A stretch of DNA of 64,000 nt from Acidobacteriota bacterium (GCA_016211085.1 JACQSY010000039.1:3129-67128); one strand, 5' to 3'. Shown: positions 6,699-64,000, numbered from the stretch's first letter. Notes: generated by a model not told the origin, from the sequence alone. Numbers and translations: made by a program.

Positions 6699-7991
6699 CT
6701 ACGGATAAATGCGATAAAGCATTCTCGGAAAAGGGATGGTCTCGCGCACGTGTTCCAGCCCGCAAATCCAAGCTACCACCCTCTCGATGCCCATGCCAAA
6801 ACCAGAGTGGGGCACCGTTCCGTACTTGCGCAGGTCCAGATACCACTCGAAGGCCTCACGGGGCAGATGATGCGACTCAAGCCGCTGGAGCAGCAAATGA
6901 TAATCGTGAACGCGCTGGCTCCCTCCGATGATCTCGCCGTAGCCTTCCGGGGCCAGGACATCCACGCAGAGCGCCAGTGAGAGGTCCTGGGGATCCGGTT
7001 GAACATAGAAAGCCTTGACCTCAACAGGGTAGCGGTGGACCATCACAGGTAAATCAAACTTCTCCGCTATGACCGTTTCGTCGGTTCCCCCAAAATCAGA
7101 ACCAATGGGAGTTTCACTTCCGGCTTCTTGAAGAATCCGGAAGGCCTCATGGTAGGTAATGCGTGGAAATGGAGGATGGATTTTCTCCAGCAACGTTGTA
7201 TCGCGTTCCAACCGTTTCAATTCTTCTTTTTTTCGATCAAGGACCCGCTGAACGACATAACTGACCAATTCTTCGGCCAGCGCCATCACGTCGTCCAATT
7301 CAGCCCAGGCAATCTCCGGTTCCACCATCCAGAACTCCATTAGGTGGCGGCGGGTCTTGGATTTCTCCGCCCGAAAAGTGGGGCCAAAACAGTACACTTT
7401 TCCGAAAGCCATACAAGTTGCTTCGCTATACAACTGCCCGCTTTGTGTCAGATATGCTTTTTGGTCGAAATATTGAGTTTCAAAAAGCGTCGTGGTTCCC
7501 TCACAGGCGGCCGGTGTAAAAATCGGCGTGTCCACGAGAGTGAATCGGCGCTCCGCAAGAAAGTCGCGGCAGGCGTGAATGATCTCGCTACGCACACGCA
7601 GAATTGCCGTCTGCCTCGAGGAACGCAACCAAAGGTGGCGGTTGTCCATCAAAAAAGCAACGCCATGCTCCTTGGGAGTGATGGGATAATTTTCGGCCAG
7701 TTGAAAAATAGTCAGTTCCGACACATCCAGTTCGTACCCGCCTGGAGCCCTTTCGTCAGCCCGGACTTTGCCTTTTATGATCAAAGAGGACTCTTGCGTG
7801 ACCCGGTCGGCGGCTTCGAATACCTCAGGTTTAACGTTCTTTTGAAAGACCACCGCCTGAACCAATCCGGTTCCATCACGCACCATCAGGAAACGAAGCT
7901 TGCCTTTTTCAGTTTTGTGGTACAACCATCCCTTGATGGTGACTTCTTCGCCTTGGTATTGCGAGATTTCTTCGATATAGGTATGAGCCAT
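6699..7991 (-). CDS. asnS: Asparagine--tRNA ligase
   Basis: Class IIb synthetase. Motif 2 [24 protein letters not shown] resembles the AsnRS type (E. coli FRAENSNTSRHLAEFWM...), not the AspRS type. C-terminal ...GFGMGIERV...FPR. Confidence 0.82.
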
Positions 7992-8010
7992 GGTTCAATG
8001 CCTTTTTCCT

Positions 8011-32400: not shown

Positions 32401-34463
32401 GTTTTCACCTCTTCTGCGCCTCTGCCCAGTTGTTCGTCGATAATCTGGAGGCTGCCCGTCAGTCCGTATATCAAGCTCTTGCCTTGCTCACGCCCGAAGC
32501 GGTTTATCAGCGTGCTTTGACCCACTTGATTGCTGCAGAAATCTTGTTGAGAGCCGCTGATATTGCGGGCGCGGCCGAACACCTTCAGACGGCAAAAAAG
32601 CTGTGCGTCGAACATTTCTATGCTCCCTTGCTTTCCCGCTGTTATCTTTTGCAAGCGCGCTTCCAACTGGTTAAGCAGGATGCTGCTTACGCGCGAGTCC
32701 TTTGCAAGCGAAGCCTTCAAGTTGCCCGAAGTGTGGAAAGGCCTTTGCTTTTTGCCGAGATTCATCGGCTGTCCGGACATGTTTACGCCGTGGCGCGAAA
32801 CTACGAAGAATCAATTCGCCACTTTGGCAATGCGCTACAGATATTGAAAGAGAGAGCACTTTTCCTTTCTTCTTCCCATCGGGAGTCTTTCATCAAAGCT
32901 TTCGTCAATCCGGTTGAGAACGAAAGAGACGATGTGGCGAAAGTTCCCAGCCGCCCCAGCAGCCAGTACTTGATTCGCTTGCGTGATCTCTTTTCGGAAT
33001 TGCAAGAGAAGAAAAGCCTTGAAGAAGCAGCTGGGGCTTCTTTGGCGATTCTCCGGAGCCTTTTCCCGGAAATGTCGGCCTGTTTGCTGGTGCAGCGGCA
33101 GACAGCGGATCCTCCGGAAACGATTGCGACGGTGGGCCGTTGCCGGCGTTCAGCGTCCGATCTGATAGGGGAAATGAAAAAAGGCGGCCCGGTGCGAGTT
33201 GTCCAGGGCAGTCCTGATCAGCCTCTTACAATTCCCCTGTCGGCCCATGGCAGGCCCTTAGGACTGCTGCATGTGGAAAGCCACACCCGTGTCTTCTCGG
33301 AGCCCGAGCTCGATTTTCTCGACTGCCTTCGCAGCATTCTGGAATTGGAGATAGCCAAATTCTTGGCGGTTCCCGCAACATCCAGGGCGGCTCGCCAGGA
33401 ATTAGTCTTGGTAAACGGTACCCGGCTCGTCGGTTCCCACCCTGAAATGCAGAAGCTGGCTGAACATGTCAGGAAAGTTGCCGTGACCGACGGTACGGTG
33501 ATTGTCACAGGCGAGAGCGGAACCGGGAAAGAGTTGGTGGCGCGCTCGATTCACGAGCTTTCCCCGCGACGTTCGCGAAGGTTTGTCCCCATTAATTGCG
33601 GTGGTCTGACTCAGGAACTGATCGAAAACGAATTATTTGGGCATGCGCGCGGAAGTTATACCGGTGCCCAGCGGGACAAAGCGGGTCTGTTCGAAGTGGC
33701 GTCGGGGGGAACGATGTTCCTCGACGAGATTGGGAGCATGGCGCTTGAGCTCCAGAAAAAGTTACTCAGAGTCCTCCAGCAGCGGCAAATTCGCAGGATC
33801 GGAGAGACTGAGGAAAGAAACATTGATGTCCGGATCATAGCGGCTACCAATCAGCGTCTTGAATCCCTGGTGGAACAAGGACAATTTCGTGAAGACCTCT
33901 ATCACCGCCTGAACGTGCACCAGATTGAGATTCCTCCTTTACGGGAGCGTGAGTCTGACATCCCGATGTTGTGCGCGTTTTTTGTAGATCAGTTAAACCG
34001 CCGTGAGAAGCAAGATCGCCAGCTTTCAGCTGCAGCCATGGAATTGTTGTGCCGCCACCAATACCCCGGCAATGTTCGTGAACTCGAAAACATTGTGGAG
34101 AGCATATACCACCTGAGCCAGGGCCCGCTAATTGATGCCGAAGTGGTGCGCTGGCGGCTGGCTTCGTCAAGACGGCCGGCAAGTTCTTCGCTTCAACAGC
34201 GGGCAAGGGAGTTGAAAGAAGCGCTTTTTCAGGGACGGTTGGAATTCTGGTCGGGAGTCCGCGACGCTTTTTTAAGACGCGATCTGTCTCGCGCCGAAAT
34301 TCGGGAGATGATTTCGTTCGGGTTGGCCGCCTGCGGGGGACGCTACCGCACCTTGCTTGAGCGCTTTCACATGCCATCCGCAGACTACAAGAAATTCATT
34401 TCGTTTCTATCCAATCACGACTGCAAGGTTGATTTTCGTCCCTATCGCCAGAACCGCGCTTGA
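29433..34463 (+). CDS. Giant sigma54-dependent activator: degenerate Ser/Thr kinase + AAA_16/STAND NTPase + helical (TPR-like) repeats + GAF + sigma54-interaction AAA+ + C-terminal tail
   Basis: Uninterrupted 1,676-codon ORF. Kinase-fold motifs SSPEYLEG and DLYSLGMLLYLVFTGVPPF. STAND Walker A QGKSGVGKS (30345-30368) and Walker B LVLLLDDLQWMDEAS. EBP motifs GESGTGKE (33510-33533), GSYTGA (33651-33668), GGTMFLDEIG, RIIAATN, FREDLYHRLNV, YPGNVRELEN. Confidence 0.9.
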   Translation: MRNQTALPMPFPYEVLEPLERSGNASVFRARDLRNSDLKVLTLLASSPSGETDLRKVEEAFDQRRSLEHPYLIRVEDLAYRHRRLGLISAFLRASPLKKARLHRGDRLNMGLQLCELVAYLHARDFYLGLLRPSQIYWSADGHIECNILFTIRRDEPRGGDLIVCRYSSPEYLEGGSITSCSDLYSLGMLLYLVFTGVPPFLEQEPDHLRTKQLFARPLSPRLIDPDLPAPLEELIVGLLEKNPLRRPSADYARQIIRDVCGNPPSALPRFRSVLVGRKREVEACRKRMTAFLSEPRLACVLVQGKSGVGKSALLSRMELAARLRGLETLQLRHHRGGKTITFQGLLEPQKSGKISRLPQKGTCQTLAQLLRERRRPLVLLLDDLQWMDEASFSAYRKLLSSTAAPLLMIAAARTDESSPVLEQFRVLLEGVPDLERISLSPLAFSDVTALTKNLLGSPPPEGLMKQLASQCAGNPFYLYERLRCIQERKELTYTGGRWHWMPQDLTSSDLPENVAEDIRSRLSSLSKSELDLLKLLSLLERPCSLALLSSVLAESCEKVADTLRFLESLDLVTLSGGLSNTVVQLSHDWVGQAVQTLLRRKEARELHFKIAGALEAASGGPEQEAILTWHFAKACASQKVQDHLWKAVRNLQKQHLYRDAAYLIVVVKECRALKLDSWEKTELTIEALYSSGKFDLCLEVAESTLAKGRLADSNRTYVFSRIAEIQLLTGNILKARVALDKALRLNSTEKALRIQLEAQLLCLLSRCGEQGESLSLAQRLLDSLNGCDCEDKVAHALCSFEDSKGGVQEAIRWEAIAVKAACVKRKYVSMVGRISNLSHFHAELGDLHQAKRFARYSLEFSRQLGNVEVAIFSQTISHIIDRKQGRHQQALQGLSELLVRNRQSNQNRHVEAEICVEIAKNLNYLVNPQAALQWLDQASQQVGEDPIASTLTDIAVARAWSYLLLGRPQEGLRLISELDWEKLVRGRVRFHLFCASAQLFVDNLEAARQSVYQALALLTPEAVYQRALTHLIAAEILLRAADIAGAAEHLQTAKKLCVEHFYAPLLSRCYLLQARFQLVKQDAAYARVLCKRSLQVARSVERPLLFAEIHRLSGHVYAVARNYEESIRHFGNALQILKERALFLSSSHRESFIKAFVNPVENERDDVAKVPSRPSSQYLIRLRDLFSELQEKKSLEEAAGASLAILRSLFPEMSACLLVQRQTADPPETIATVGRCRRSASDLIGEMKKGGPVRVVQGSPDQPLTIPLSAHGRPLGLLHVESHTRVFSEPELDFLDCLRSILELEIAKFLAVPATSRAARQELVLVNGTRLVGSHPEMQKLAEHVRKVAVTDGTVIVTGESGTGKELVARSIHELSPRRSRRFVPINCGGLTQELIENELFGHARGSYTGAQRDKAGLFEVASGGTMFLDEIGSMALELQKKLLRVLQQRQIRRIGETEERNIDVRIIAATNQRLESLVEQGQFREDLYHRLNVHQIEIPPLRERESDIPMLCAFFVDQLNRREKQDRQLSAAAMELLCRHQYPGNVRELENIVESIYHLSQGPLIDAEVVRWRLASSRRPASSSLQQRARELKEALFQGRLEFWSGVRDAFLRRDLSRAEIREMISFGLAACGGRYRTLLERFHMPSADYKKFISFLSNHDCKVDFRPYRQNRA

Positions 34464-35713: not shown

Positions 35714-36478
35714 TTATTTGACCCTTGCCGGCACGTAGCGATTCAAAGCGTCAAGAAATGGCCTGACGACGGAGTTTGAACGGATCTTTCCCCGCATCAA
35801 GATGTCGGTACCAGAGACATCCTTACCAAAAACCTTGTGATTTGCGCTGTCGTTAATGTTGAGCCCAGCCCCATCCAGCGCTATTCCTGCAAACAGCCCC
35901 TTGCTGCGTGAATAGGAATAAATGGAAGCATCCATTCGCACGTTGGTGCTGGCCGAGGCCGTTCGCCCTACCGGCCCGGCTGCAACGGAAGCGTCAACCC
36001 CCATCTTCAGACCCTTGTCATTCAGCAAAGCCTGCAGCCCGTCATCGTCTGTGAAAACGAGTACCAGGTCCATCTTGGTAACGCCGATCTGAAAACCTAA
36101 GCTGGCCCCGCCCAGGTCGACGAAGCAGGGCGTGCTCCAAGCTTTTGCAGAAGTTCGTCTGGAAAGCAGTCCTTTTCCATAGGAACCACCAATGCCGAAA
36201 GCTCCTTTAACCATTCCGGGAATCACGGCGATGGCATGGGCGCGCTCCAATAAATCCTTCGGTATTCCTTTCTCAGGAACTCCAGAAAGCTCGGCTAAGA
36301 CTTCCGCCGCTTCCTTGGAACGTTCTATGTAATCCTCGAGGTCCTTCTGCTTCTCGTCACCCGGAGACTTTCGAGGAGCTTCGGCCGCTAAGACCAAGTA
36401 CGGCAGAAACGCGAGGGTCATTATGGAGACCCGCGCCCGTAATGAAATGAAAGATACCCATGATCCACGTCGATACAT
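35714..36478 (-). CDS. Secreted SYLF (Ysc84/DUF500) lipid-binding-domain protein
   Basis: Core ...AIAVIPGMVKGAFGIGGSYGKGLL...GGASLGFQIG... is typical of SYLF. Start placed at MYRRGSW... (36478), which has a GGAGGGAGG Shine-Dalgarno and lies downstream of the predicted sigma54 promoter. Confidence 0.72.
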   Translation of the reverse strand: MYRRGSWVSFISLRARVSIMTLAFLPYLVLAAEAPRKSPGDEKQKDLEDYIERSKEAAEVLAELSGVPEKGIPKDLLERAHAIAVIPGMVKGAFGIGGSYGKGLLSRRTSAKAWSTPCFVDLGGASLGFQIGVTKMDLVLVFTDDDGLQALLNDKGLKMGVDASVAAGPVGRTASASTNVRMDASIYSYSRSKGLFAGIALDGAGLNINDSANHKVFGKDVSGTDILMRGKIRSNSVVRPFLDALNRYVPARVK

Positions 36479-36537
36479 GTGTGACTCTCTTCCTCCCTCC
36501 TTCCGAAACTTCATGGACGGTGATTGCTCTAATGGAG

Positions 36538-36552
36538 GCAAGTCGGATGCCA
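36538..36552 (-). promoter_or_regulatory. sigma54 (-24/-12) promoter candidate P2: TGGCAT-CCGAC-TTGC
   Basis: The minus strand reads aacTGGCATccgacTTGCCtcc. The GG and GC dinucleotides have the canonical spacing. It lies about 60 nt upstream of the SYLF gene start at 36478. Confidence 0.6.
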
Positions 36553-53434: not shown

Positions 53435-54721
53435 CTAGACCGCCGTGGATTCCAGACGACGTGCGTACAAAGGAAATTTTCCCGTGACAGTGCGGACTTC
53501 TTTTCTCACCTGTTCCTGAACCGTTTCGTCTTCGATTCGCAGCAGCACGCGGCTGATCCATTCGGCAATTTGGCGCATTTCCGGTTCCTTTAAGCCACGG
53601 GTGGTTACAGCAGGCGTTCCGATTCTGATCCCGCTGGTTATCAAAGGAGGATGTCTGTCAAAAGGAATCGTGTTCTTATTAACGGTAATGGAAGCTTTTT
53701 CCAAAGCCTCTTCCGCCTGCTTCCCAGTGAGTCCCTTGGAAAAAACATCTACTAAAAAGAGATGGTTGTCGGTGCCGCCGGAGACAATTCTAAAATCTTT
53801 TTGAGCCAGGGCAGATGACAGCGCGCAGGCATTCAAGACAATTTGCTTCTGGTAAAGCCGGAAATCCTCGGTCATTGCTTCCTTAAAACAGACTGCTTTA
53901 GCGGCGATGATGTGCACCAATGGCCCACCCTGGACACCGGGGAAAACTACTTTATCGAGTATTTTTTTGTGTTCCTCCTTGCACATGACCATTCCGCCGC
54001 GGGGGCCCCGGAGTGTCTTGTGGGTGGTTGAGGTAACGAAATCGGCATATGGAACAGGATTGGGGTGCAGTCCGGCTGCAACCAGTCCGGCGATGTGGGC
54101 AATGTCCACCATAAGGTAAGCGTTGGCGCTCTTGGCAATTTCGGAAAGTAGATCAAATCGAAAGGTACGGCTGTAGGCGCTGGCTCCTGCCACAATCATT
54201 TCGGGCCGTTCCGCCCGGGCGAGGTCCGCCAGAGCATCGTAGTCAATTTGCTCCGTTTCTTGACTGACTCCGTAGGGCACCACTCGGAAGTATTTTCCGG
54301 AAAAATTAAGGGGGTGGCCGTGGGTAAGGTGGCCGCCATGCGAAAGGTTCATGCCGAGAATCGTGTCTCCCGGAGAAAGGGCAGCCATGTACACGCTCAT
54401 GTTGGCCTGGCTGCCTGAGTGGGCCTGGACGTTCACGTGATCAGCGCCAAAAAGGGCCTTCGCTCGCTCCATAGCCAGGCTTTCCACGACATCCGCAAAC
54501 TGGCAGCCGCCGTAATATCTTCTCCCAGGGTATCCTTCAGCGTACTTGTTGGTGAACACTGAGCCCATGGCCTCAAGGACAGCCTCGCTGACGAAGTTTT
54601 CGGAAGCAATCAGCTCTAAAGTTTCGTACTGGCGTCTGGTTTCAAGGGAAATAGCTTCAGCAACTTCAGGGTCGACTTCGCGAAGGCTTTGTTCCATTGG
54701 ATTAGAGCGGTCGTTGGTCAT
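53435..54721 (-). CDS. glyA: Serine hydroxymethyltransferase
   Basis: LELIASENF and the PLP-lysine context [14 protein letters not shown]. The track start (54799) would overlap proS, so I use 54721. The ATG at 54697 is an equally possible start. Confidence 0.9.
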
Positions 54722-54786: not shown

Positions 54787-56484
54787 ATGCGCTGGTCACA
54801 GCTCTTTATTCCCACCCTAAGGGAGGTTCCGGCTGAAGCGGAAGTCGTCTCTCACCAGCTTTTGTTGCGTGCGGGTTTTATTCGCCAACTAGGGGCCGGA
54901 ATCTATTCGTATCTGCCGCTTGCTCGCCGCACTCTTCAAAAAATCGAACGAATTATCAGAGAAGAGATGGAGCGGATTGGCGCCCAGGAATTTTATTTGC
55001 CGGCGCTCCACCCGGCCGAATTATGGCAGGAAACCGGGAGATGGACGGAAATGGGCGATAACATGTTCCGACTCAAGGACCGCACAGGGCGAGAGCTTTG
55101 TCTCGGGATGACTCATGAAGAAGTGTTTACCTCTATTGCCCGCAATGAACTGCGCTCCTATCGCGACCTTCCTCAGCTCTGGTATCAGATTCAGGTGAAA
55201 TTCAGGGACGAGCCGCGTCCCAAGGCAGGCTTGCTGCGTGTTCGCCAGTTCACGATGAAGGACTCCTACAGTTTTGACTTGGACGCCAACGGGTTGGAAA
55301 AAAGTTATCGGTTGCACGAACAGGCATACCGCCGGATCTTTGATCGTTGCGGCCTGGAGTACACGGTGGTTCAGGCTGAGTCAGGGGCTATGGGTGGCAG
55401 CGAGTCAGAGGAATTCATGGTGCGTACGGATGCGGGTGAGGACATGGTAGTGAGTTGCGCCTGTGGCTACGCTGCGAACCTGGAGCGAGCCGTGTCGTGC
55501 TTGGTTCCAATCACCGATGACCCCGCTGAGAGATCACCCGAACTGGTCCATACACCTCAACAAAAGACTATTCAGGAGGTCAGCGAGTTCCTCAAGGTGC
55601 CTAAATCAAGACAAATCAAATCGCTGGTTTATGTAGTAGAGAGCAAGCCCGCATTAATCCTGATGCGGGGGGATCATCAACTCAATGAATCAAAACTCTC
55701 CCGCGCCATGGAGACTGACCAATTCCGCCCGGCGACCCCTGATGAAATTCGGGACCTGTTTGGGGCGGATCCAGGCAGCCTTGGTCCTGTGGGAATGCAA
55801 GGCAAAGGTGTCGCAATTATCGCGGATCTTTCCCTCCAGAATCGCAGGAATCTTATTTGCGGGGCCAATCGCGACCACTACCACTTGCTTAACGTCACAG
55901 CTGGAATAGATTTCACCGCCGCCTTTTACGATTTGAGGAGGGTGGAGGCAGCCGACCCATGTTCGTGCTGTGGGCGGCCATTGGATATTTTCAAGGCTTT
56001 GGAAGTGGGGCACATTTTCAAGCTGGGCTATAAATACAGCCGTTCCATGAAGGCCACCGTGCTCGATCCCGAAGGCAAGGAGGTTCCCATCATTATGGGG
56101 AGTTATGGTATAGGGCTGGAACGAATCATGGCTGCTGCAGTCGAGCTTTATCACGACGAAGCCGGGATCGTTTGGCCGCGCTCCATCGCCCCTTTTCAGG
56201 TTTTGATCACTTTGCTGGGAACACAGGAAAATCAGAAACAATTGGCGAAGAGAATCTATGACGCTTTGAACCAAATGGGTATCGATTGTCTGCTGGACGA
56301 CCGTGATGAACGTCCCGGCGTCAAATTTAAAGATGCTGAACTGATCGGGGTCCCTGTCCGTGTCACCATTGGTAAGAAATTTGAGCAGGGGAAGGTTGAG
56401 ATATTTTGCAGAAGTCAGAGGGAGTTAAGAGAAGTGGATGCGGATGAAGCGTTGCTTGAAATAATTCGGGCTCTTGGAGATTGA
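54787..56484 (+). CDS. proS: Proline--tRNA ligase (bacterial type with editing insertion)
   Basis: Start [15 protein letters not shown]. Class II motif 2 [22 protein letters not shown]-terminal anticodon-binding domain. Confidence 0.93.
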
Positions 56485-56545
56485 ACTGAAAGATGGCCTC
56501 TTTCAGGCGGCATCTCGCAGGCCTTAACCGTCCTTGATAAAAAGT

Positions 56546-57295
56546 TTAGCGCCCACGCGCCGCGTTTCGGGTTCCAATCAGGTCGGCAATATTACGGCGT
56601 CTTTCCCTCAACGAAGGGTGTGAAGAGAAAAAGCCGCTGGCACCGCGCTGGCTGGAGCGCTCGAGTCTCTCCAGAAATGTCAACATCCCCATAGGGTTGA
56701 AGCCACTGTGCCGCATGAGTTGAACCCCGAGTCGATCGGCTGCGCGCTCGGCATCCCGACTGTATTTAAAGAAGATTCCGCCGCCGACCATCTGGCCGGC
56801 GAGATTTGCAATCTGCCCTCCGGTTCCTCGTCCAACCAGAAGGTCGAGAATTCCCAACCCTAAACCGATCCGCTGCGCTCTCTGGAGCTGTTCGACGCTG
56901 TGGCGCAGGGTGACATGTGAGATTTCGTGGGCCAGTACACCAGCAACTTCGCTGTCGCTGCGCGCCGTATCCAGGACTCCACGATTGAGGAAAATGTGGC
57001 CGCCGGGTAAAGCGAAAGCATTGATTTCATCCCGATCCAGAACGGTGAAATGATAGGGGATGTTCCGTCCTGAATTCCGTGCCAGCCTCTGTCCCAGGCG
57101 GTTCACGTAATTTTGCGCAGCACGATTGCGTAACACCGGATGGGTTCGAAGTACTTCTTGTGCGGCTTCCCGGCCGAGTTCGATTTCCTGTGTTTCGCTG
57201 AGGCGCTGAAATTGGCCATGAAGCGGTTGACAAGCAGGAGCGCCAACGGCCACAAGAGTAAACAAAATGTATTGCGGAAGATATCGACTTCTCAT
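56546..57295 (-). CDS. M48-family zinc metallopeptidase (secreted/periplasmic)
   Basis: Signal peptide and HEISHV (HExxH) motif. Confidence 0.8.
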   Translation of the reverse strand: MRSRYLPQYILFTLVAVGAPACQPLHGQFQRLSETQEIELGREAAQEVLRTHPVLRNRAAQNYVNRLGQRLARNSGRNIPYHFTVLDRDEINAFALPGGHIFLNRGVLDTARSDSEVAGVLAHEISHVTLRHSVEQLQRAQRIGLGLGILDLLVGRGTGGQIANLAGQMVGGGIFFKYSRDAERAADRLGVQLMRHSGFNPMGMLTFLERLERSSQRGASGFFSSHPSLRERRRNIADLIGTRNAARGR

Positions 57296-57472
57296 AATGA
57301 ATTCTGTCTTACCTTCAAGACGATCAGTGCATGCAAAAAGTTGTAATCAACGCTTGAAAAACCAAAAAAGGTAAAAATTCCCGCGCGGCGGGGGAGTTAC
57401 CCGGAGGTGATTTGTCGTTCTTTCTGCTGCTAAACCTTTGAATTTATGAGAGCAGATCCATGGGGGCGGCAC

Positions 57473-57487
57473 TGGCACGCCGGTTGC
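57473..57487 (+). promoter_or_regulatory. sigma54 (-24/-12) promoter candidate P3: TGGCAC-GCCGG-TTGC
   Basis: Reads cacTGGCACgccggTTGCCtga on the plus strand, 150 nt upstream of the OmpA-family gene start. Matches the consensus TGGCAC-N5-TTGC. Confidence 0.7.
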
Positions 57488-57636
57488 CTGATGAAGAGCC
57501 GTCGCTCCACCAAGGAGCGAAAAAGGGAAACCGCAGGTGGGGAACATTTCATCCCACCTCTCCCCCAGGTTTAGGAATGCAACCGCCTGCGGTTTCAAAG
57601 TCTAGAGAAATAAGATTCTTTTAAGGAGTAAGCGAA

Positions 57637-58380
57637 ATGAGGATCCGCTGCCTGTTGGCGACAGCCGCTATCTTTATCCTTTTTACCAGCGCCTGCGCCA
57701 CCAAGAAATTTGTACGCAAAGAGGTACAGACCGTACGCTCGGAGATGGAAACCGCGACCGGCGAACTGTCCCAGAAAACTGAACAGATTTCGGAAGAAGT
57801 AGACTCGACCCGCTCCGACGTGAGACAGATGGGTACTACGGTTGAGGAATTGTCGCAAGCGCATCGGGATACCTCCCGGGAACTGGCTGGACTCTCGGAA
57901 TCCACTAAGCGCGTCGAGGGCATTGCGACTCGCGCCTCTGCAGACGTGGGTACCCTCAATGAGGCATTTCTCAATCGAAACCGATACGAGATTATCGCTG
58001 AAACCCAGGTAAATTTTGCCCTGGGGAGTTCGCGACTGCAGCAGGGAGCGCTAGAGGTTCTCGATGAAATTGCCGGGATGCTTTTGGAGAATTCCGACGC
58101 CATCTTGACCCTTGAAGGACGCACGGATTCAAGCGGAAGCGATCAGTACAACATTGTGCTCGGGGACCTTCGGGCGGAGTCAGTGATTCGGTACCTGGTT
58201 GTCGAGAAAGGCATACCGATGTTCCGAATCTCCAAGGTGAGTTTTGGCGAAGCACGGCCCATTGCTTCTAACACGTCGCGGGAAGGGCGCAAACAGAATC
58301 GAAGCGTAGTGATGAAAGTTTTTGCCCCTATCGCCAAAGGGGTGATGGCTTCAGGGGAGACCCCTGAGCCGCAACAGTAG
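57637..58380 (+). CDS. OmpA-family (peptidoglycan-associated) lipoprotein with coiled-coil N-terminal half
   Basis: Lipobox LFTSAC. C-terminal OmpA-like domain (LEGRTDSSGSDQYNIVLGDLRAESV...NRSV). AAGGAG Shine-Dalgarno. Confidence 0.85.
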   Translation: MRIRCLLATAAIFILFTSACATKKFVRKEVQTVRSEMETATGELSQKTEQISEEVDSTRSDVRQMGTTVEELSQAHRDTSRELAGLSESTKRVEGIATRASADVGTLNEAFLNRNRYEIIAETQVNFALGSSRLQQGALEVLDEIAGMLLENSDAILTLEGRTDSSGSDQYNIVLGDLRAESVIRYLVVEKGIPMFRISKVSFGEARPIASNTSREGRKQNRSVVMKVFAPIAKGVMASGETPEPQQ

Positions 58381-58391
58381 CCCGCCACTCT

Positions 58392-58427
58392 GGGGGTGAC
58401 AGGACAGGTTGTCGCCCCCTTATTCTC
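58392..58427 (+). terminator. Rho-independent terminator candidate after the OmpA-family gene
   Basis: GGGGGTGACA-ggacaggt-TGTCGCCCCC forms a 10-bp stem with one G.U pair, followed by TTATTCTCCCTTT. It sits in the convergent junction and overlaps the stop of the minus-strand lipoprotein gene. Confidence 0.55.
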
Positions 58428-58917
58428 CCTTTGGACTATACCCGTCGGAATTTTTTCGTGGTTGAAGGTCAATACTTTTCAGCCGTTGGAGATCTTTCTG
58501 AAGCCGTTCGATTTCCCGATCCCGCGCAGCCGTCTCAGATCGGGATCGCTCCGCATCATTGTGCAATTTCAAAAGAAGCGCAGCTTCCTGAGCGTAGGTT
58601 GTACCGGGATGGTTTTCAATGAGCTGCTTAAAAACGATGGGTGCCTGCGAACTCTTTTCGCTTACTGAGATATAGCAGAATCCCAACCTCAAGAGCGCTT
58701 GAGGCACACCGTCAGCGGATGGGAACTCTTGGAGGTATTGCTCATAAGCTTCTGCTGAAAGTTCGTATTGGCCGGAAGCAAACAGATTGTCGGCTGCAAG
58801 GAGTTCCGTCTGGCCTGCGGCGATCGGAGGCAGTGGAAGCGTGCGAGGTTTTTTTTGGCAACCCGCCAGGAGAATCAGGCCCAACACGATCGCCGCTGTG
58901 CGCTTTTTCCTGTTCAT
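58420..58917 (-). CDS. Lipoprotein with TPR-like helical domain, last gene of the two-component operon
   Basis: Lipobox LLAGC. ATGA overlap with the histidine kinase stop. Helical repeats (...LFASGQYELSAEAYEQYLQEFP...). Confidence 0.5.
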   Translation of the reverse strand: MNRKKRTAAIVLGLILLAGCQKKPRTLPLPPIAAGQTELLAADNLFASGQYELSAEAYEQYLQEFPSADGVPQALLRLGFCYISVSEKSSQAPIVFKQLIENHPGTTYAQEAALLLKLHNDAERSRSETAARDREIERLQKDLQRLKSIDLQPRKNSDGYSPKGE

Positions 58918-60449
58918 ACGGGGGCTGAATGCACCTCCGGAAGACGCTGGTCGGTGCGCAGAAGCACAGAGAAAACACTGCCCGAGGAATCGGGCCGATC
59001 CTGGACCCAGATAGCGCCCCCATGAGCTTCCACGATAGTCCGACTAATAGCCAGCCCCAGCCCCACACCCTGTCCGAAAACTTTTTTTCCTTGTTTGACC
59101 TGATGGAATTTTTCAAAGATCAGCTCTTTTTGTTGATTGGGGATTCCCGGGCCGGCATCGGCTACGGAGACCATAGCGAAAGGAGAACGGAATCCATTGC
59201 TCAGTGATTTCAAAAATCGTTCCGGCAGGTCGGAAGGAAGCTCCGCGACGGATTCGACTTGTACGCGAATTGAAGAACCGGACGGAGAAAAATTCAAGGC
59301 GTTGCTGAGCAGATTCTCTACGACCTGCAGAATTCGATCAGGATCACAAGGAACCACAACTGATTCGGCGGGCGCGTTTAGTTCAAGCTTGTTTCCCTTC
59401 TCTCGTGCAGGCGCGTCGAACTCCGCAACTGCGGTCCGTACCAGACTCACAAGGTCCTGGGGTTTTATCTCGTAACGCATCACGCCCGCCTCCATTCGTG
59501 AGAGATCCAGGAGGTTACTAATCATGGAGGACAAGCGTTTACTACTTTGCAGGCTGAGCTGCAGCAGGCGCCTCTGCTTTTCGCCCAGCGGTCCTGGTAT
59601 CTCCTCCAGCAAAAGGCTGAGAGTTTCATGGATAGATGCAAGAGGGGCTTTCAGTTCGTGTGATACGTGTGAAACGAAATCTTTTTTTAATTGATCCAGC
59701 TCATTGAGGCGCATGGCCATGTTGTTGAAGGCTCGGCTCATCTGGGTAAACTCGTCCTTGCCGTTTTCTGAAAGGCGGTACGAGAATTGCCCTCTAGCAA
59801 TGGCTCGCGTCCCTTCAGTCAGTTTTTTCAATCGGTTTGAAAGCGGCTGAAGCGAGAAATAAGAAACCAGCAGGGCCAGGGCCAGCGCGCCGGCTGCCGA
59901 CAACCAGAACACGCGCGTAGCTGTTTGCACTGCTTGCTGAGACGTTTGAACTTCACGCACGATCGACTGCTTGGTGGATTCGAGTACGGAGTCGGTTAAA
60001 CGGTGCAAACGCGCGAAGGATTTTTCCAGATCGCTGCGAAAGGCATCTTCGGCAGCAGGTGCTGCGGAGGCCAGGGTGGCGGCGTTGCCGTCCCGCAGAA
60101 AATCCCTCCAGGAGGAACGAAGTACGGTAAAGGCCTTTTTTTCACGCGGGTTCTGCAGGGTGCTTCCTAGTTCCTCGAGATGCCGTGTAAAACTATGTTG
60201 CAGCTCTTCCAGCTTCTCTTGATAGCCTGCGTCACCCCGGGTCACCAGCAGCTTCCACGTGTATTCTTCGACTTCTTCGAGTTCACGGATTAGTTGCAAA
60301 GATGCCGAGGCTGCTTTGAATTGGACCTGGGCTAGATCGTGGGTGAGTCTTTGCAGTTGGTGCAGCACCGCAACCTGGTAGGCAAGGACCGAAAGGATCA
60401 GGAGGATAAGAACGGCAAAACCCGTTGCTATCCTGGTGGAGATTTTCAC
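58914..60449 (-). CDS. Sensor histidine kinase (TM + HAMP + HisKA + HATPase_c)
   Basis: H-box SHELKAPLASI, N-box LLSNALNFS, G-boxes DAGPGIP and GQGVGLGLAISR. GTG start. Confidence 0.85.
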   Translation of the reverse strand: MKISTRIATGFAVLILLILSVLAYQVAVLHQLQRLTHDLAQVQFKAASASLQLIRELEEVEEYTWKLLVTRGDAGYQEKLEELQHSFTRHLEELGSTLQNPREKKAFTVLRSSWRDFLRDGNAATLASAAPAAEDAFRSDLEKSFARLHRLTDSVLESTKQSIVREVQTSQQAVQTATRVFWLSAAGALALALLVSYFSLQPLSNRLKKLTEGTRAIARGQFSYRLSENGKDEFTQMSRAFNNMAMRLNELDQLKKDFVSHVSHELKAPLASIHETLSLLLEEIPGPLGEKQRRLLQLSLQSSKRLSSMISNLLDLSRMEAGVMRYEIKPQDLVSLVRTAVAEFDAPAREKGNKLELNAPAESVVVPCDPDRILQVVENLLSNALNFSPSGSSIRVQVESVAELPSDLPERFLKSLSNGFRSPFAMVSVADAGPGIPNQQKELIFEKFHQVKQGKKVFGQGVGLGLAISRTIVEAHGGAIWVQDRPDSSGSVFSVLLRTDQRLPEVHSAPV

Positions 60450-60457
60450 GACTCAGA

Positions 60458-61816
60458 TCACTCAAGCCCGTAAGATTTTAGCTTGTTGCGAATCGTCTTA
60501 ACATCCAGCCCCAAAACCCGGGCGGCCTCAGCTTTGTTGTTGCCCGACTTGGCCAATGTTTTCATGATCAGCTCTTTTTCCGCCTCGGCCACGGTGGTTC
60601 CCACGGAAAGGAAGATTTTTTCTCCGGAATCAGCCCTGGGATTCTGAATATAGGGAGGCAGATGAGAACCCTCGATCCATTCGCCGCGAGCCAGAATAAC
60701 TGCCCGTTCAATGATATTCTTCAGCTCTCGCACGTTGCCCGGCCAGTCGTATGCTTTGAGCATTTCCATCACACCGTCACGCAACGCTTGAATCCGGGTA
60801 TTGTGCTTGCGATTGAATTCACCGATGAAATGCTGCACCAGCAGGGGTAAATCTTCTTTGCGTTCCCGCAGAGGAGGAATGGTCACAGTAAATACGTTCA
60901 GCCGGTAATAAAGATCCTCTCTCAGACGGCCATCCTCGACAGCTTTTTTGGGATCCTGGTTCGTCGCTGCCAAAACGCGGACGTCAAAAGACATTTCTTG
61001 ACGCCCTCCCAGTCGACGCACTTTACCGTCCTCAAGCACACGTAAGAGCTTAGGCTGAAGAGACATCGGCATTTCGGCAATTTCGTCCAGCATCAGTGTG
61101 CCTCGGTTCGCCAACTCAAAACAGCCTGGCCGCACCCCGGCGGCTCCAGTAAACGCCCCTTTTTCGTGTCCAAACAACTCGCTTTCGATCAGAGTCTCAG
61201 GAATTGCCGAGGCATTAATGGCGATGAAGGGACCGGTAGACCGGCTGCTCAACTCATGGACGGTGCGTGCTGCGAGCTCTTTTCCAGTTCCGCTCTCCCC
61301 GGTGATCAGAGCGATCGCATCGGTGCCGGCAAGGCTCTGGAGGAGTTCATAGACTTCTTTCATGCGGCGGCTGGTTCCTATGAAATCTCCGAAACCAGAT
61401 CCTTTTTCCAGTTTCGAACTTAATTTGCGCGACTCTCGTCGAAGTTGTATTTCTTTCTCTGCGGCCTCGAGGGTGGCCTTGAGCTTTGGATGATCAAGCG
61501 GCTTGGTCACGAAATCCTGAGCACCCTGCTTCATGGCTTCCACGGCCATATCCACACTTCCTTGCGCGGTAATCAGGATCACCGGCCTGGAGGGATTGCC
61601 GGACTTGAGCAGGCGCAGCAGCTCGAGACCCGAAGTCCCCGGCATGACGATGTCCGAAATGACGATGTCAGGGTCCTGACTCTCTACGATTTTTTGTCCT
61701 TCGATTCCATCCGAAGCCATCAACACCTCGTATCCCCAGTGCTCTAGCAGCAGCTGAAGGGACTCGAGCATGCCCGCTTCGTCGTCCACAACCAAGATTC
61801 GAGTTGGAGTCGTCAC
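60458..61816 (-). CDS. NtrC-family sigma54-dependent response regulator
   Basis: Receiver (ILVVDDE...DIVMPG), AAA+ (GESGTGKE, canonical GAFTGA at 61142-61159, RVLAATN) and a C-terminal Fis-type HTH (NKAEAARVLGLDVKTIRNKLK). Confidence 0.9.
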   Translation of the reverse strand: MTTPTRILVVDDEAGMLESLQLLLEHWGYEVLMASDGIEGQKIVESQDPDIVISDIVMPGTSGLELLRLLKSGNPSRPVILITAQGSVDMAVEAMKQGAQDFVTKPLDHPKLKATLEAAEKEIQLRRESRKLSSKLEKGSGFGDFIGTSRRMKEVYELLQSLAGTDAIALITGESGTGKELAARTVHELSSRSTGPFIAINASAIPETLIESELFGHEKGAFTGAAGVRPGCFELANRGTLMLDEIAEMPMSLQPKLLRVLEDGKVRRLGGRQEMSFDVRVLAATNQDPKKAVEDGRLREDLYYRLNVFTVTIPPLRERKEDLPLLVQHFIGEFNRKHNTRIQALRDGVMEMLKAYDWPGNVRELKNIIERAVILARGEWIEGSHLPPYIQNPRADSGEKIFLSVGTTVAEAEKELIMKTLAKSGNNKAEAARVLGLDVKTIRNKLKSYGLE

Positions 61817-61945
61817 TACCGAGTCCCCCAGGGAAAAAACTCCTACACTTCAATCATATTCCGGTGCGTGTGACGTTACAAACTAAAGGGTGATTTCAGT
61901 GCAAAATAAAGCAACGCCAACCATGATTCAGAATAGCATAATCGC

Positions 61946-61960
61946 TGGTACGCCGGTTGC
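61946..61960 (+). promoter_or_regulatory. sigma54 (-24/-12) promoter candidate P4: TGGTAC-GCCGG-TTGC
   Basis: Reads cgcTGGTACgccggTTGCGtgc, 51 nt upstream of the ATG at 62011. 18 of 20 nt are identical to P3. Confidence 0.62.
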
Positions 61961-62010
61961 GTGCAGGAAAGCGGGAGGCGTTCCACGTGTCGCCTCAGGA
62001 GGCATAGCAT

Positions 62011-62601
62011 ATGAGGCTTCTCGCCTATATTTACATCGTCTTTACCCTTGTTTTGTTTGGGGTGCTGGAACTGGCCGGGGCCGAACATCCCGTGACAGGA
62101 ACTGAACTGCGAGTTCGCCTGATGGACACCATCAGCACGGAAGACAACGAGGTAGGTGACCGTTTTACTGCGCGTGTGGTTTCTCCGGCCAAGTACGAAG
62201 GCTCGACCGCATACGGAAGAATCTCCAGCATTCAGAAGTCTGGAAAACTGAAGGGCCGGACCCGGCTGGGCCTGAGGTTTGATCGAATAGACCTTGCCGG
62301 CGGAGGATCCGTGCCCGTTCGTGCGGACGTTATCCGGGTTTATGAATCTGAAGATGAAAATGTAAGGGAAACCTCTGAAGAGGGTTCTTTGGAGACCGGA
62401 AAACAAAGTAAGGAGGCCCTGAAACGTGGAGCGATCGGGGCGGCAGCTGGAGCGGTTATCGGGGGCCTTGCCGGAGGGAAAACCGGTGCTGCCATCGGAA
62501 TTCTCGTAGGAGGTGCTGGTGGCGCCGGCTCGGTTTGGGTGACTGGCCGAAAGGAACTGGAACTGGAACGAGGCACTGAAATGTTGATAAGGGTCCGATA
62601 A
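62011..62601 (+). CDS. Secreted protein with C-terminal glycine-zipper segment
   Basis: Signal peptide, AGGAGG Shine-Dalgarno, and GAIGAAAGAVIGGLAGGKTGAAIGILVGGAGGAG near the C-terminus. The longer antisense ORF 61876-62625 is Ser/Arg/Pro-rich and looks spurious. Confidence 0.6.
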   Translation: MRLLAYIYIVFTLVLFGVLELAGAEHPVTGTELRVRLMDTISTEDNEVGDRFTARVVSPAKYEGSTAYGRISSIQKSGKLKGRTRLGLRFDRIDLAGGGSVPVRADVIRVYESEDENVRETSEEGSLETGKQSKEALKRGAIGAAAGAVIGGLAGGKTGAAIGILVGGAGGAGSVWVTGRKELELERGTEMLIRVR

Positions 62602-62795
62602 CCGTTTCGTCCGTCTCCAGGACACGTTTTGTTGCAGCGGGGCGAAGCCGTCTCGCTTGTTGCTCTTCCTCGCCGTGAGGCGGCATCAACTCGCCCGTCC
62701 CTCTCCGACGCTCAAGCAAGGTTATCTTTCGTTAAACCAGTCCAGGACGGCTGTTTTGCAATTCCTCTAAACATAAGGCGTTTTCCCTTTTTTGT

Positions 62796-62824
62796 TTGAC
62801 ACGGGTCGCCACTCGCCCTATATT
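62796..62824 (+). promoter_or_regulatory. sigma70-type promoter of the mraZ/dcw cluster (TTGACA-17 nt-TATATT)
   Basis: -35 TTGACA (62796-62801), 17-nt spacer, -10 TATATT (62819-62824), 56 nt upstream of the mraZ ATG. Confidence 0.6.
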
Positions 62825-62825
62825 A

Positions 62826-62862
62826 GGACTAATTTGGACTAAAAAAGACCAAAAAGGTCCAA
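62826..62862 (+). promoter_or_regulatory. Four direct repeats at exact 10-bp phasing (GGACTAA, GGACTAA, AGACCAA, GGTCCAA): candidate MraZ operator
   Basis: Repeats start at 62826, 62836, 62846 and 62856, immediately downstream of the -10 box and upstream of the mraZ Shine-Dalgarno. Confidence 0.5.
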
Positions 62863-62879
62863 TTAGGAAGAGCCTGTCC

Positions 62880-63323
62880 ATGATGTTTCGAGGGAATTTC
62901 CCGGCGACTGTCGATCCGCAAGGTCGGATTAAAATCCCGACCGCGCATCGCAAGATCCTCGAGGAACAGTACGGCCCGGACCTCTATGTGACGAGCATCA
63001 CCGGTGAAAACGCGCTGATTTATCCGTTAGATGAATGGGAACAGATCGAACAGAGACTCCTTGAGCCGCCAAAGATGCTCCCCGGAAAGACCAAATTTCT
63101 CCGCAACGCCAGTTACTACGGGCAAGTTGCATCCATGGACAAGCAGGGACGAGTCATGATTCCGCCTCATCTGCGTGAAGCGGCTCAAATCGAAGGCGAG
63201 GTCGCGGTGATGGGTTACCTGAATTATCTTCAGGTTTGGAATAAAGAGAGATTCCAGAATCTACTTCGCTCCGACCCCTATACCGACAAGGACGCCTCTG
63301 CGCTGGCGGATCTTGGGATTTAG
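62880..63323 (+). CDS. mraZ: Transcriptional regulator MraZ
   Basis: MMFRGNFPATVDPQGRIKIP plus a second SpoVT/AbrB-like half (...MDKQGRVMIPPHLRE...). Start at the ATG at 62880 (or 62883), not the track TTG at 62796, which is the -35 box. Confidence 0.9.
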   Translation: MMFRGNFPATVDPQGRIKIPTAHRKILEEQYGPDLYVTSITGENALIYPLDEWEQIEQRLLEPPKMLPGKTKFLRNASYYGQVASMDKQGRVMIPPHLREAAQIEGEVAVMGYLNYLQVWNKERFQNLLRSDPYTDKDASALADLGI

Positions 63324-63325
63324 TA

Positions 63326-64000
63326 ATGGCAATCATGGCAGTTCAGCACAGTCCGGTACTGGCTCGAGAATCTTTGCGACTCTTAAAGGTACGTCCGGGG
63401 GGTACTTATGTTGACTGCACGGTGGGTTTGGGCGGTCACGCCGAGCTGATTTTGGAGCAGCTGCAAGGCAAGGGGGAGTTAATAGGGCTCGACCGGGACC
63501 GAGCGGCTCTTACTCTTGCCGAGGCCCATCTTCGATCACGTTTTTCTAATTTTCGACTGTTTCATCGCAATTTTAAGGAGCTCCCACAATTGCTGACAGA
63601 ACTGGAAATAAACGGCTTTGACGGATGTCTGGCGGACCTAGGCCTCTCTTCATTTCAACTGGACGATTCCCAGCGAGGTTTTAGCTTTCGCTTTGCGGGC
63701 CCACTCGACATGAGGATGGACAGGAGTTGCGGGGTGACTGCAGGCGAGCTGGTCAATACCCTTCCAGAGGACGAGCTGGTAGATCTTTTCCGTAGGTATG
63801 GGGAAGAAAAGATGGCACGCAGGATCGCGGCTGCTATTGCAGACCGCCGGCGAAGCGCCCCCATCACCGACACGGTGGATCTCGCAACGATTGTCGAGGG
63901 GGTCAAGGGTCGGCGCCGCGGGACACGAATACATCCGGCCACGCAGGTTTTTCAGGCCTTGCGGATACGTGTCAACGACGAGCTTTCCGGGCTGGAAACT
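63326..64000 (+). CDS. rsmH: 16S rRNA (cytosine1402-N4)-methyltransferase RsmH, N-terminal 225 codons (3' end outside window)
   Basis: Not in the ORF track because there is no stop inside the window. My translation from the ATG at 63326 gives MAIMAVQHSPVLARESL...GGTYVDCTVGLGGHAE...GLSSFQLDDSQRGFSFRFAGPLDMRMD...HPATQVFQALRIRVNDEL. Confidence 0.9.
   Translation, partial: MAIMAVQHSPVLARESLRLLKVRPGGTYVDCTVGLGGHAELILEQLQGKGELIGLDRDRAALTLAEAHLRSRFSNFRLFHRNFKELPQLLTELEINGFDGCLADLGLSSFQLDDSQRGFSFRFAGPLDMRMDRSCGVTAGELVNTLPEDELVDLFRRYGEEKMARRIAAAIADRRRSAPITDTVDLATIVEGVKGRRRGTRIHPATQVFQALRIRVNDELSGLET

Follow-up and report, generated by a model that had tools for sequence, protein, structure and literature searches.

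A 64,000-nt stretch of DNA from an Acidobacteriota bacterium (GCA_016211085.1 JACQSY010000039.1:3129-67128; hereafter, the window), derived from the metagenome-assembled genome of an uncultured Acidobacteria member, contains two sites, P3 and P4, that resemble sigma-54 (-24/-12) promoters. P3 precedes a gene for an OmpA-family lipoprotein (target 1), and P4 a gene for a secreted glycine-zipper protein (target 2; locus tag HY645_04660 in NCBI). An operon located between the two sites, on the other strand, encodes an NtrC-type response regulator (RR), a sensor histidine kinase (HK) and a TPR lipoprotein. The features of the window and their comparison with orthologous loci make it likely (probability of about 0.75) that P3 and P4 are true sigma-54 promoters within a small envelope regulon that is encoded locally. 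An earlier inspection of the window (the sequence-only reading) had proposed a local sigma-54 regulon run by the adjacent NtrC-type two-component system (TCS); this proposal is now strongly supported by a palindrome that lies at a fixed distance from sigma-54 promoters near orthologous RR-HK pairs. Acidobacteriota are a dominant phylum of soils and sediments for which few genetic tools exist, and to our knowledge their transcriptional regulation is almost entirely uncharted.

A conserved palindrome upstream of sigma-54 promoters

Loci with orthologous RR-HK pairs were identified by scanning with the kinase, which yielded 34 loci in Acidobacteriota genomes and about 77 in metagenomes (a separate collection, some members of which duplicate genome loci), that is, more than 100 Acidobacteriota loci in all. 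Relative to the window proteins, the orthologues in the 34 genome loci showed 40-53% identity for the kinase and 54-74% for the RR. Over all loci, HK orthologues showed 39-53% identity along their full length, and those present as partial fragments reached 58%. When the regions upstream of the sigma-54 sites of these loci were aligned side by side, a palindrome, GGGAAA-W-TTTCCC, was found upstream of the -24/-12 promoters near the RR-HK pairs. Allowing at most one mismatch, GGGAAANTTTCCC occurred at 26 sites in the 34 genome loci plus a 12-kb part of the window around P3 and P4, where a hand calculation predicts about one over roughly 440 kb; 23 of the 26 sites lay in non-coding DNA flanking TCS genes. 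The distance from the centre of the palindrome to the T of the promoter TGG clustered at 92-99 nt in the genome loci, with a minority at 62-149 nt. Among the metagenome loci, 17 of 21 palindrome-promoter pairings fell at 92-98 nt.

Both window promoters have a candidate upstream activating sequence (UAS) of this kind (Table 1). The centre of GGTAAAAATTCCC lies 97 nt upstream of the TGG of P3 (98 nt by the counting used for the family loci), which is the commonest distance class, and that of GGGAAAAAACTCC lies 109 nt upstream of the TGG of P4, a distance inside the range observed for the orthologous loci. A position weight matrix (PWM) built from strong family sites, which themselves score 16-28 bits, ranked GGTAAAAATTCCC fifth (12.3 bits) and GGGAAAAAACTCC fifteenth (7.8 bits) among the ∼64,000 positions of the window. 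These two were the only ones with a good sigma-54 site nearby among the eight top-scoring UAS-like sites checked. Further regulon members were sought at the palindrome-like sites at 53471, 11526, 52056, 10195, 58008 and 62891 and were rejected; none had a sigma-54 partner, and those checked were in coding DNA. The site at 53471-53483, for instance, corresponds to the glyA codons T-G-K-F-P. Palindrome matches were also seen inside HK genes (L003 9144, L004 9144, L033 8168 and L072 6150, the L numbers denoting individual orthologous loci), where by hand translation they apparently encode the HATPase N-box A-V-K-F-S-P. None of the coding matches in the HK genes or glyA was paired with a sigma-54 site; such matches are a caveat for genome-wide scans with the motif.

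P3 agrees with the consensus TGGCAC-N5-TTGC(W) at 10 of 10 positions and P4 at 9 of 10. Both are intergenic and oriented toward a gene, and their coordinates and their match to the -24/-12 consensus are as the sequence-only reading had given them. Only two perfect matches to TGGCAC-N5-TTGC exist in the 64 kb, P3 being one of them. A single -24/-12 match means little, because 11 sites with at most one mismatch were found in the window (5.6 expected). This abundance speaks for P3 and P4 being chance matches and for the genes behind them being transcribed by the housekeeping sigma factor. That explanation is extremely unlikely, however: the 19-mer shared by the two promoters, CTGGYACGCCGGTTGCSTG, occurs in the window at P3 and P4 only, even with up to three mismatches (0.05 sites expected); the sites are correctly oriented in intergenic DNA; the family enhancer stands at the family distance; and P4 is kept in L043, the closest relative. 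The similarity between P3 and P4 was slightly overstated by the sequence-only reading, which counted 18 shared positions out of 20, since the 20-mers actually share 17 (17/19 in the 19-nt core).

The distance from P3 to the ATG of the OmpA-family gene is 150 nt, and that from P4 to the ATG of the glycine-zipper gene is 51 nt, with an AGGAGG Shine-Dalgarno sequence at 61997-62002. Transcription is predicted to start at about 57499 (P3; deduced from the spacing to the -12 element) and at about 61972 (P4). The two promoters had been thought to point outward from the operon, which cannot hold for both because both are on the + strand: P4 is divergent from the RR gene, while P3 faces the operon. 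P3 and the OmpA-family gene, which itself lies between the two promoters, converge on the 3′ end of the operon, where the TPR gene is located. The octamer GGTGATTT, shared by the two regions (57407 and 61890), was considered as a UAS or IHF site and discarded; by hand calculation, two 130-nt regions would be expected to share about 0.26 8-mers, and L043 lacks the octamer.

Recurrence of the enhancer and promoters in orthologous loci

The comparison of orthologous loci that the sequence-only reading had called for revealed that the enhancer and promoters recur on OmpA and glycine-zipper genes, even where these genes are swapped or unlinked. In L043, whose glycine-zipper protein is 67% identical to that of the window, P4 and its UAS are kept as AGGAAAAATTCCT followed by TGGAACGGCTGTTGC, and the promoter is divergent from a truncated gene with receiver-domain-like sequence. 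A more distant group of loci, subclade A (L022, L023, L027 and L029, with L039 being similar), has a kinase about 41% identical to that of the window and no TPR gene. Its RR-HK genes are flanked by two sigma-54 promoters, most of them with a recognisable UAS. The divergent promoter leads to an OmpA-domain protein (DUF5666, alanine zipper, OmpA) followed by a VWA protein, and the convergent one, in L039 as well, leads to a secreted protein of 175-210 amino acids; in four loci, L039 being the exception, this protein gives a weak match to the glycine-zipper profile. The positions of the OmpA and glycine-zipper genes are therefore swapped with respect to the window.

The gene layout of L011 is that of the window. 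In L008 and L050 the OmpA and glycine-zipper-like genes are neighbours on the same strand. A gene for a glycine-zipper lipoprotein in L024 is preceded by a UAS and a perfect promoter, and in L044 a UAS and a GG-N10-GC promoter precede a glycine-zipper gene on a 4.2-kb contig that carries no TCS gene. All four OmpA homologues whose context was looked up adjoin RR-HK-TPR operons. Apparent targets of other kinds in the orthologous loci include REC-only genes with an M48 peptidase gene behind them, genes for small proteins (about 100 amino acids) predicted to be secreted, and one for a Crp-like regulator. A compact arrangement was seen in L006 (3757-3968), where a single perfect palindrome (3878-3890) separates two perfect sigma-54 promoters arranged back to back. 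A series of OmpA, VWA, RR, HK and TPR genes follows one of them, and a gene for a Crp/cNMP-binding regulator the other.

In the genome scan, the metagenome scan and the protein searches, no full-length HK relative exceeded about 53% identity and no OmpA relative exceeded 43%. Glycine-zipper orthologues with 63-67% identity were present on short contigs only, and no close relative carrying both P3 and P4 was found in these searches.

Points against a local regulon, and a possible alternative activator

Several observations weigh against P3 and P4 being promoters of a regulon controlled by the adjacent RR. The UAS copies of the window are weak by the standard of the PWM training sites, and the right half of the P4 copy is degenerate. 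Thirteen-mers with at most two mismatches to the palindrome occur 12 times in the window, compared with about 2.7 times in shuffled sequences, mostly in coding DNA. The link between the RR and the enhancer is an association across genomes, and the helical phasing between enhancer and promoter is only marginal (Rayleigh p 0.05-0.4). Membership of the regulon varies, OmpA-family homologues being present in 19 and glycine-zipper-like genes in 8 of the 46 loci of at least 8 kb, and the more distant glycine-zipper homologues of Blastocatellia lack the UAS and the promoter motif. The 64-kb window contains no RpoN box, and sigma-54 itself is assumed. Finally, the scan for a sigma-70-like promoter of the operon gave one match where 2.0 were expected in the region, which is not above chance.

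The weakness of the UAS copies would also suit a different bacterial enhancer-binding protein, encoded elsewhere, as the activator of P3 and P4, the adjacent TCS being a mere neighbour; the genome indeed encodes at least one more sigma-54-type AAA+ protein (29433-34463). This is improbable, since the palindrome travels with the orthologues of this RR-HK pair in more than 100 loci despite rearranged neighbours, and is also found upstream of the RR gene, which suggests autoregulation. Control by the adjacent RR is the preferred explanation.

The additional AAA+ protein corresponds to a 1676-aa open reading frame (+ strand) that by eye has a protein-kinase-like N-terminus, a long repeat- or ATPase-like middle part and a sigma-54-interaction AAA+ module, with GSYTGA rather than GAFTGA in the loop. 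About 2-2.5 kb beyond it, on the other strand, there are a perfect TGGCACATAAGTTGC and a one-mismatch site (36934-36920 and 36552-36538, both sigma-54-type and on the - strand), the one-mismatch site lying just before the gene at 35714-36541. This reading frame and the nearby sites may constitute a second sigma-54 circuit in the window.

The identical spacer of P3 and P4

P3 and P4 share all five nucleotides of the spacer between their -24 and -12 elements. Among 28 family promoters (378 pairs) they are the only pair with a 5/5 spacer match and the most similar pair overall. Their identity at non-consensus positions is 10/14, compared with a maximum of 9/14 for orthologous promoters of related genomes. 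Among the 26 other promoters the spacer varies without any consensus; the sole bias, at position 1 (G in 14 of the 28 promoters), is insufficient for a preference for G+C-rich spacers to have caused the identity. Promoter pairs within one genome (L022, L023, L027, L029, L039 and L006) share 0-2 of the five spacer positions.

The sequence-only reading had taken the identical spacer as a sign of duplication or of an extra constraint. The second suggestion fails: recognition of GCCGG by a further protein or through a special sigma-54 contact has only the spacer identity itself in its favour, whereas the 26 related spacers vary, the within-genome pairs differ, and the nearest P4 orthologue has GGCTG. 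As GCCGG is not conserved in any relative, there is no family-wide constraint, and a functional role of this kind is decidedly improbable. The identical spacer is, on the sequences compared, a peculiarity of this lineage and not a requirement of the system.

The suggestion of duplication stands in so far as P3 and P4 are the most similar of all pairs, and falters in that their similarity is confined to the core. Upstream identity is 27%; just downstream it is 13/30 (p ∼0.03), a slight excess that would fit the copying of a short cassette, and it then falls to background. No extended duplication around the two promoters was found, so any copied unit would comprise only about 20-50 nt. Copying within the lineage, by duplication or gene conversion, could account for the near-identity of the cores (17/19) and for a spacer match and non-consensus identity that orthologous promoters do not reach. 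Against it, the observation was made post hoc, the near-matching spacers GCCCG (L006) and GCCGA (L024) show that such sequences arise independently, and there is no close relative with both promoters by which to date the event. A copy is plausible, although less likely than not, and the spacer identity could also have arisen by chance.

Target genes and their predicted transcripts

Table 1. Features of the P3-P4 region. Positions are counted from the first nucleotide of the window.
Feature	Positions	Strand	Description
Candidate UAS for P3, GGTAAAAATTCCC	57370-57382		Two mismatches to GGGAAA-N-TTTCCC; 12.3 bits with the family PWM
P3, sigma-54 (-24/-12) promoter, TGGCACGCCGGTTGC	57473-57487	+	Perfect consensus match; intergenic; right distance from UAS
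P3 leader (predicted)	57499-57636	+	138 nt; two hairpins; 14-bp stem 57527-57540/57583-57596
Target 1, OmpA-family lipoprotein	57637-58380	+	Lipobox FTSAC; coiled coil of ∼90 aa; OmpA_C-like peptidoglycan-binding domain
Terminator-like hairpin	58392-58419		G+C-rich; in the 39-nt gap between the OmpA and TPR genes; T-rich tail on + strand
TPR lipoprotein	58420-58917	-	Lipobox LLAGC; C-terminal coiled coil; TPR_6; last gene of the operon
Sensor histidine kinase	58914-60449	-	Two transmembrane segments; 4HB_MCP-type extracytoplasmic domain of ∼140 aa; HAMP; HisKA; HATPase
RR (bacterial enhancer-binding protein)	60458-61816	-	REC; AAA+ Sigma54_activat (GAFTGA); Fis-type HTH_8
Candidate UAS for P4, GGGAAAAAACTCC	61831-61843		Left half-site perfect; right half-site degenerate or shifted by 1 nt
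Candidate sigma-70-like operon promoter	61853-61881	-	TTGTAA-17 nt-TATGAT; consensus match only
P4, sigma-54 promoter, TGGTACGCCGGTTGC	61946-61960	+	One consensus mismatch; intergenic; kept in L043
Target 2, secreted protein, not a lipoprotein	62011-62601	+	Signal peptide ...LAGA/EH (cleavage at the slash); beta domain with inserted glycine zipper (aa ∼130-175)
Terminator-like hairpin	62636-62657	+	Past the glycine-zipper gene

Domain searches upheld the gene identities proposed in the sequence-only reading, namely an OmpA lipoprotein, a secreted glycine-zipper protein, an RR with GAFTGA, an HK and a lipoprotein. Target 1 is an OmpA_C-like lipoprotein, judged by its N-terminus (MRIRCLLATAAIFILFTSAC) and its match to PF00691 (61.7 bits; gathering score 27.2). 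Its scores were far below the equivalog cut-offs for Pal, YiaD and YfiB. These features suggest that it is likely a tether between the outer membrane and peptidoglycan.

The match of target 2 to PF13441 (YMGG) reached 19.6 bits, below the gathering score of 28.9, and its GxxxG-rich segment was invariant across 46 homologues. In an AlphaFold2 (AF2) model of the protein, pLDDT exceeded 80 in the beta domain and was lower than 50 in the zipper. The confident beta domain comprises residues 30-111 and 174-195, the low-confidence zipper (115-172) being inserted within it. The only PDB matches of this domain were the C-terminal domains of VirB10, TrwE, ComB10, CagY and DotG, and they were marginal (E 1e-3 to 1e-2, TM ∼0.3). 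The inserted zipper recalls the membrane-spanning 'antenna' of VirB10.

The leaders of the two predicted transcripts differ in length, that of P4 being about 39 nt. The P3 leader folds with a minimum free energy of -50.6 kcal/mol (z = -3.4 relative to shuffled controls) and has no terminator or T-run. It is not a known RNA family, since an Rfam scan of positions 56000-64000 with E values up to 1 returned no match. Its sequence is unlike the leaders of the orthologous OmpA genes inspected, which vary in length. An unusually long leader (∼140 nt) that folds beyond shuffled controls might indicate that the main product of P3 is a regulatory RNA or riboregulated leader, OmpA expression being secondary; in the closest analogous system, that of qseEGF, an adjacent sigma-54 promoter drives the small RNA (sRNA) glmY (PMC6075780). 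Such a role would be quite improbable, as there is neither a terminator nor a T-run after the hairpins nor an Rfam match, and the feature conserved among orthologous loci is the OmpA gene itself and not the leader.

In one subclade, the OmpA leaders (L026 ∼2290-2302, L048 ∼6770-6819, L052 ∼7950-8000) contain GTGCCGG...GATCCGGCGAWTTCGGAGGAAA just before the start codon. This element, absent from the window leader, could form a small hairpin with its 3′ arm over the Shine-Dalgarno sequence, which would suggest translational control of the OmpA gene in those loci.

The presence of a terminator-like hairpin after each target gene suggests that the P3 and P4 units are monocistronic. The hairpin at 58392-58419 probably ends the P3 transcript, judging from its position and T-rich tail, and may possibly serve the opposite strand as well.

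A gene for an M48 (BepA/LoiP-like) peptidase (56546-57295, - strand) is divergent from P3, and its start lies 75-87 nt from the P3 enhancer; no convincing sigma-54 promoter for it was found in the window. In L002 (4308-4940) and L018 (4615-5461), an M48 homologue follows a REC-only gene located behind a UAS and a sigma-54 promoter. The M48 peptidase may belong to the regulon in other lineages.

The RR-HK-TPR operon

The RR has the architecture of the NtrC family, with Pfam E-values of 7e-30 for REC, 8e-67 for Sigma54_activat and 1e-12 for HTH_8, and the GAFTGA motif near residue 220. It scored below the NCBIfam equivalog cut-offs for AtoC (427 bits, cut-off 714), NtrC (417, cut-off 559), the PEP-CTERM RR (395, cut-off 503), ZraR (382, cut-off 760) and GlrR (342, cut-off 763). 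In the HK, the match to 4HB_MCP_1 covers residues 1-155, between two transmembrane segments. The start of the TPR gene overlaps the HK stop codon by 4 nt; the TPR lipoprotein itself gave BamD- and YbgF-like TPR matches below cut-off. A TPR homologue was found downstream of the HK gene in 68 of the 93 orthologous loci with enough sequence, and is absent from the whole of subclade A. The sequence-only reading had proposed the lipoprotein as a possible periplasmic co-sensor, and the 4-nt overlap and the co-occurrence in 68/93 loci fit the idea that it may modulate the kinase in this capacity.

No convincing sigma-54 promoter for the RR operon was found on the - strand, the best site having three mismatches and being in the wrong place. 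A sigma-70-like candidate is present (Table 1). Most orthologous loci have a TATACT-like -10 box ahead of the RR gene; the UAS adjoins this box in many loci, and in several it occupies the position expected for the -35 box. In the window, GGGAAAAAACTCC is 15 nt away from the start codon of the RR gene, just downstream of the predicted -10 box, so that the P4 enhancer extends over the beginning of the candidate sigma-70-type transcription unit of the operon. Because the enhancer covers the first bases predicted to be transcribed, the activator would probably damp its own synthesis, the operon thus probably being subject to negative autoregulation. NtrC sites are known to overlap and repress sigma-70 promoters, negative autoregulation being established at glnAp1 and glnL.

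In L011 (4554-4665, + strand), the RR gene itself is preceded by a UAS and, at a distance of 92 nt from it, by TGGCAAACAAATTGC. Transcription of the TCS operon in this locus seems to depend on sigma-54, which would result in positive autoregulation, unlike the sigma-70-like arrangement of the window and most other loci.

Proposed mechanism and significance

A model that would accommodate the promoters, the domain content, the enhancer motif with its fixed spacing, and the conserved gene linkage is as follows. The membrane kinase would sense an extracytoplasmic signal through its four-helix-bundle domain, possibly via, or jointly with, the TPR lipoprotein, and would phosphorylate the NtrC-type activator. 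The latter would bind the palindromes GGTAAAAATTCCC (at P3) and GGGAAAAAACTCC (at P4) and, by DNA looping and ATP hydrolysis, open the sigma-54 closed complexes at both promoters. Two monocistronic genes would thereby be induced, one for a coiled-coil/OmpA lipoprotein and one for a secreted glycine-zipper protein, while activator bound at the P4 enhancer would probably repress its own operon. The likely physiological role, as far as the predicted products indicate, is cell-envelope remodelling or repair. The model predicts that conversion of GGTAAAAATTCCC or GGGAAAAAACTCC to GGGAAAATTTCCC would raise promoter activity.

The locus is a standard enhancer-dependent sigma-54 circuit that involves no new mechanism; it is of an ordinary kind, undescribed in this phylum. 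Searches of the literature for the palindrome or for acidobacterial sigma-54 envelope regulons returned nothing relevant. A wider reading is more tentative, and its parts taken jointly have somewhat less than an even chance of holding. According to this reading, many Acidobacteriota would share an envelope-surveillance 'three-component' system, not described before, that consists of a 4HB kinase, a TPR lipoprotein and a sigma-54 activator with an enhancer code of its own; it would adjust coiled-coil (Lpp/OprI-like)/OmpA tethers and VirB10-fold glycine-zipper proteins, the promoter core having been copied in the lineage of the window.

The analysis provides a testable cis-regulatory code (palindrome, spacing and -24/-12 promoter), ready for immediate use in predicting the full regulon of whichever acidobacterial genome is of interest. 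A module of sensor, activator and lipoprotein, whose envelope targets recur across more than 100 loci, is defined as well, and the work adds to the theme of lipoprotein-assisted envelope sensing (PMC6075780).

Comparison with known systems

The functionally closest known system is QseE/QseG/QseF (GlrK/YfhG/GlrR), the 'three-component system' of Enterobacteriaceae, in which the operon lipoprotein, QseG, activates the kinase (PMC6075780; PMC12691602). As in that system, the window contains an operon for an HK with a helical periplasmic domain (∼140 aa, between two transmembrane segments), a lipoprotein and a sigma-54 RR. In both, a UAS acts, or is predicted to act, on a sigma-54 promoter next to the operon, and the output concerns the cell envelope. 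The differences are nevertheless numerous. The gene order is qseE-G-F in the known system and RR-HK-lipoprotein in the window; the window RR scores 342 bits against a GlrR equivalog cut-off of 763; and the window lipoprotein is a TPR protein. The UAS is TGT-N12-ACA in the former and GGGAAA-W-TTTCCC in the window family. The targets are the sRNA glmY and rpoE in one case and protein genes in the other, Rfam detecting no glmY-like RNA in the window. Finally, qseEGF is not autoregulated, whereas the window enhancer overlaps the operon promoter region. All tests of orthology between the window system and QseE/QseG/QseF were negative.

ZraPSR of E. coli and Salmonella (PMC4987338) is likewise a sigma-54-dependent TCS linked to envelope stress, and has a gene for a secreted accessory or effector protein that is divergent from the TCS operon and is transcribed from a sigma-54 promoter under its own RR. 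However, the window RR reaches 382 bits with the ZraR model (cut-off 760), and the product of the divergent gene is a glycine-zipper protein whose beta domain is VirB10-like and which has no ZraP-type Pfam match. Both zraP and zraSR are sigma-54-driven, whereas in the window this applies to the divergent promoter, P4, only, the operon apparently being transcribed from a sigma-70 promoter. The window also has a second, convergent target and a lipoprotein partner, and its kinase has a 4HB sensor domain with no evidence for zinc sensing. The window system is not a member of ZraPSR.

The likeness to NtrB/NtrC-glnA consists of a REC-AAA+-HTH_8 activator and palindromes at least ∼100 bp upstream of a -24/-12 promoter. 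The window locus has no nitrogen-metabolism gene, however, and its RR scores 417 bits against an NtrC cut-off of 559. The NtrC motif, TGCACC-N5-GGTGCA, is unlike the palindrome of the window family.

With regard to the targets, target 1 resembles Pal and YiaD in combining an OmpA_C-like domain with a coiled coil, and its larger relatives in other loci carry an alanine zipper of the OprI type. Target 2 resembles YMGG and SlyB proteins in its glycine zipper, its homologues being named 'SlyB' by JGI, and both targets are touched by the NCBIfam model for YiaD, a lipoprotein in which a glycine zipper and an OmpA domain are fused. The scores obtained are all far below the equivalog cut-offs, however, and target 2 is not a lipoprotein, its zipper being placed in a VirB10-like beta domain. 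That sigma-54 controls the bacterial exterior is an established theme (PMC3162934), of which the P3-P4 locus would be a phylogenetically distant example.

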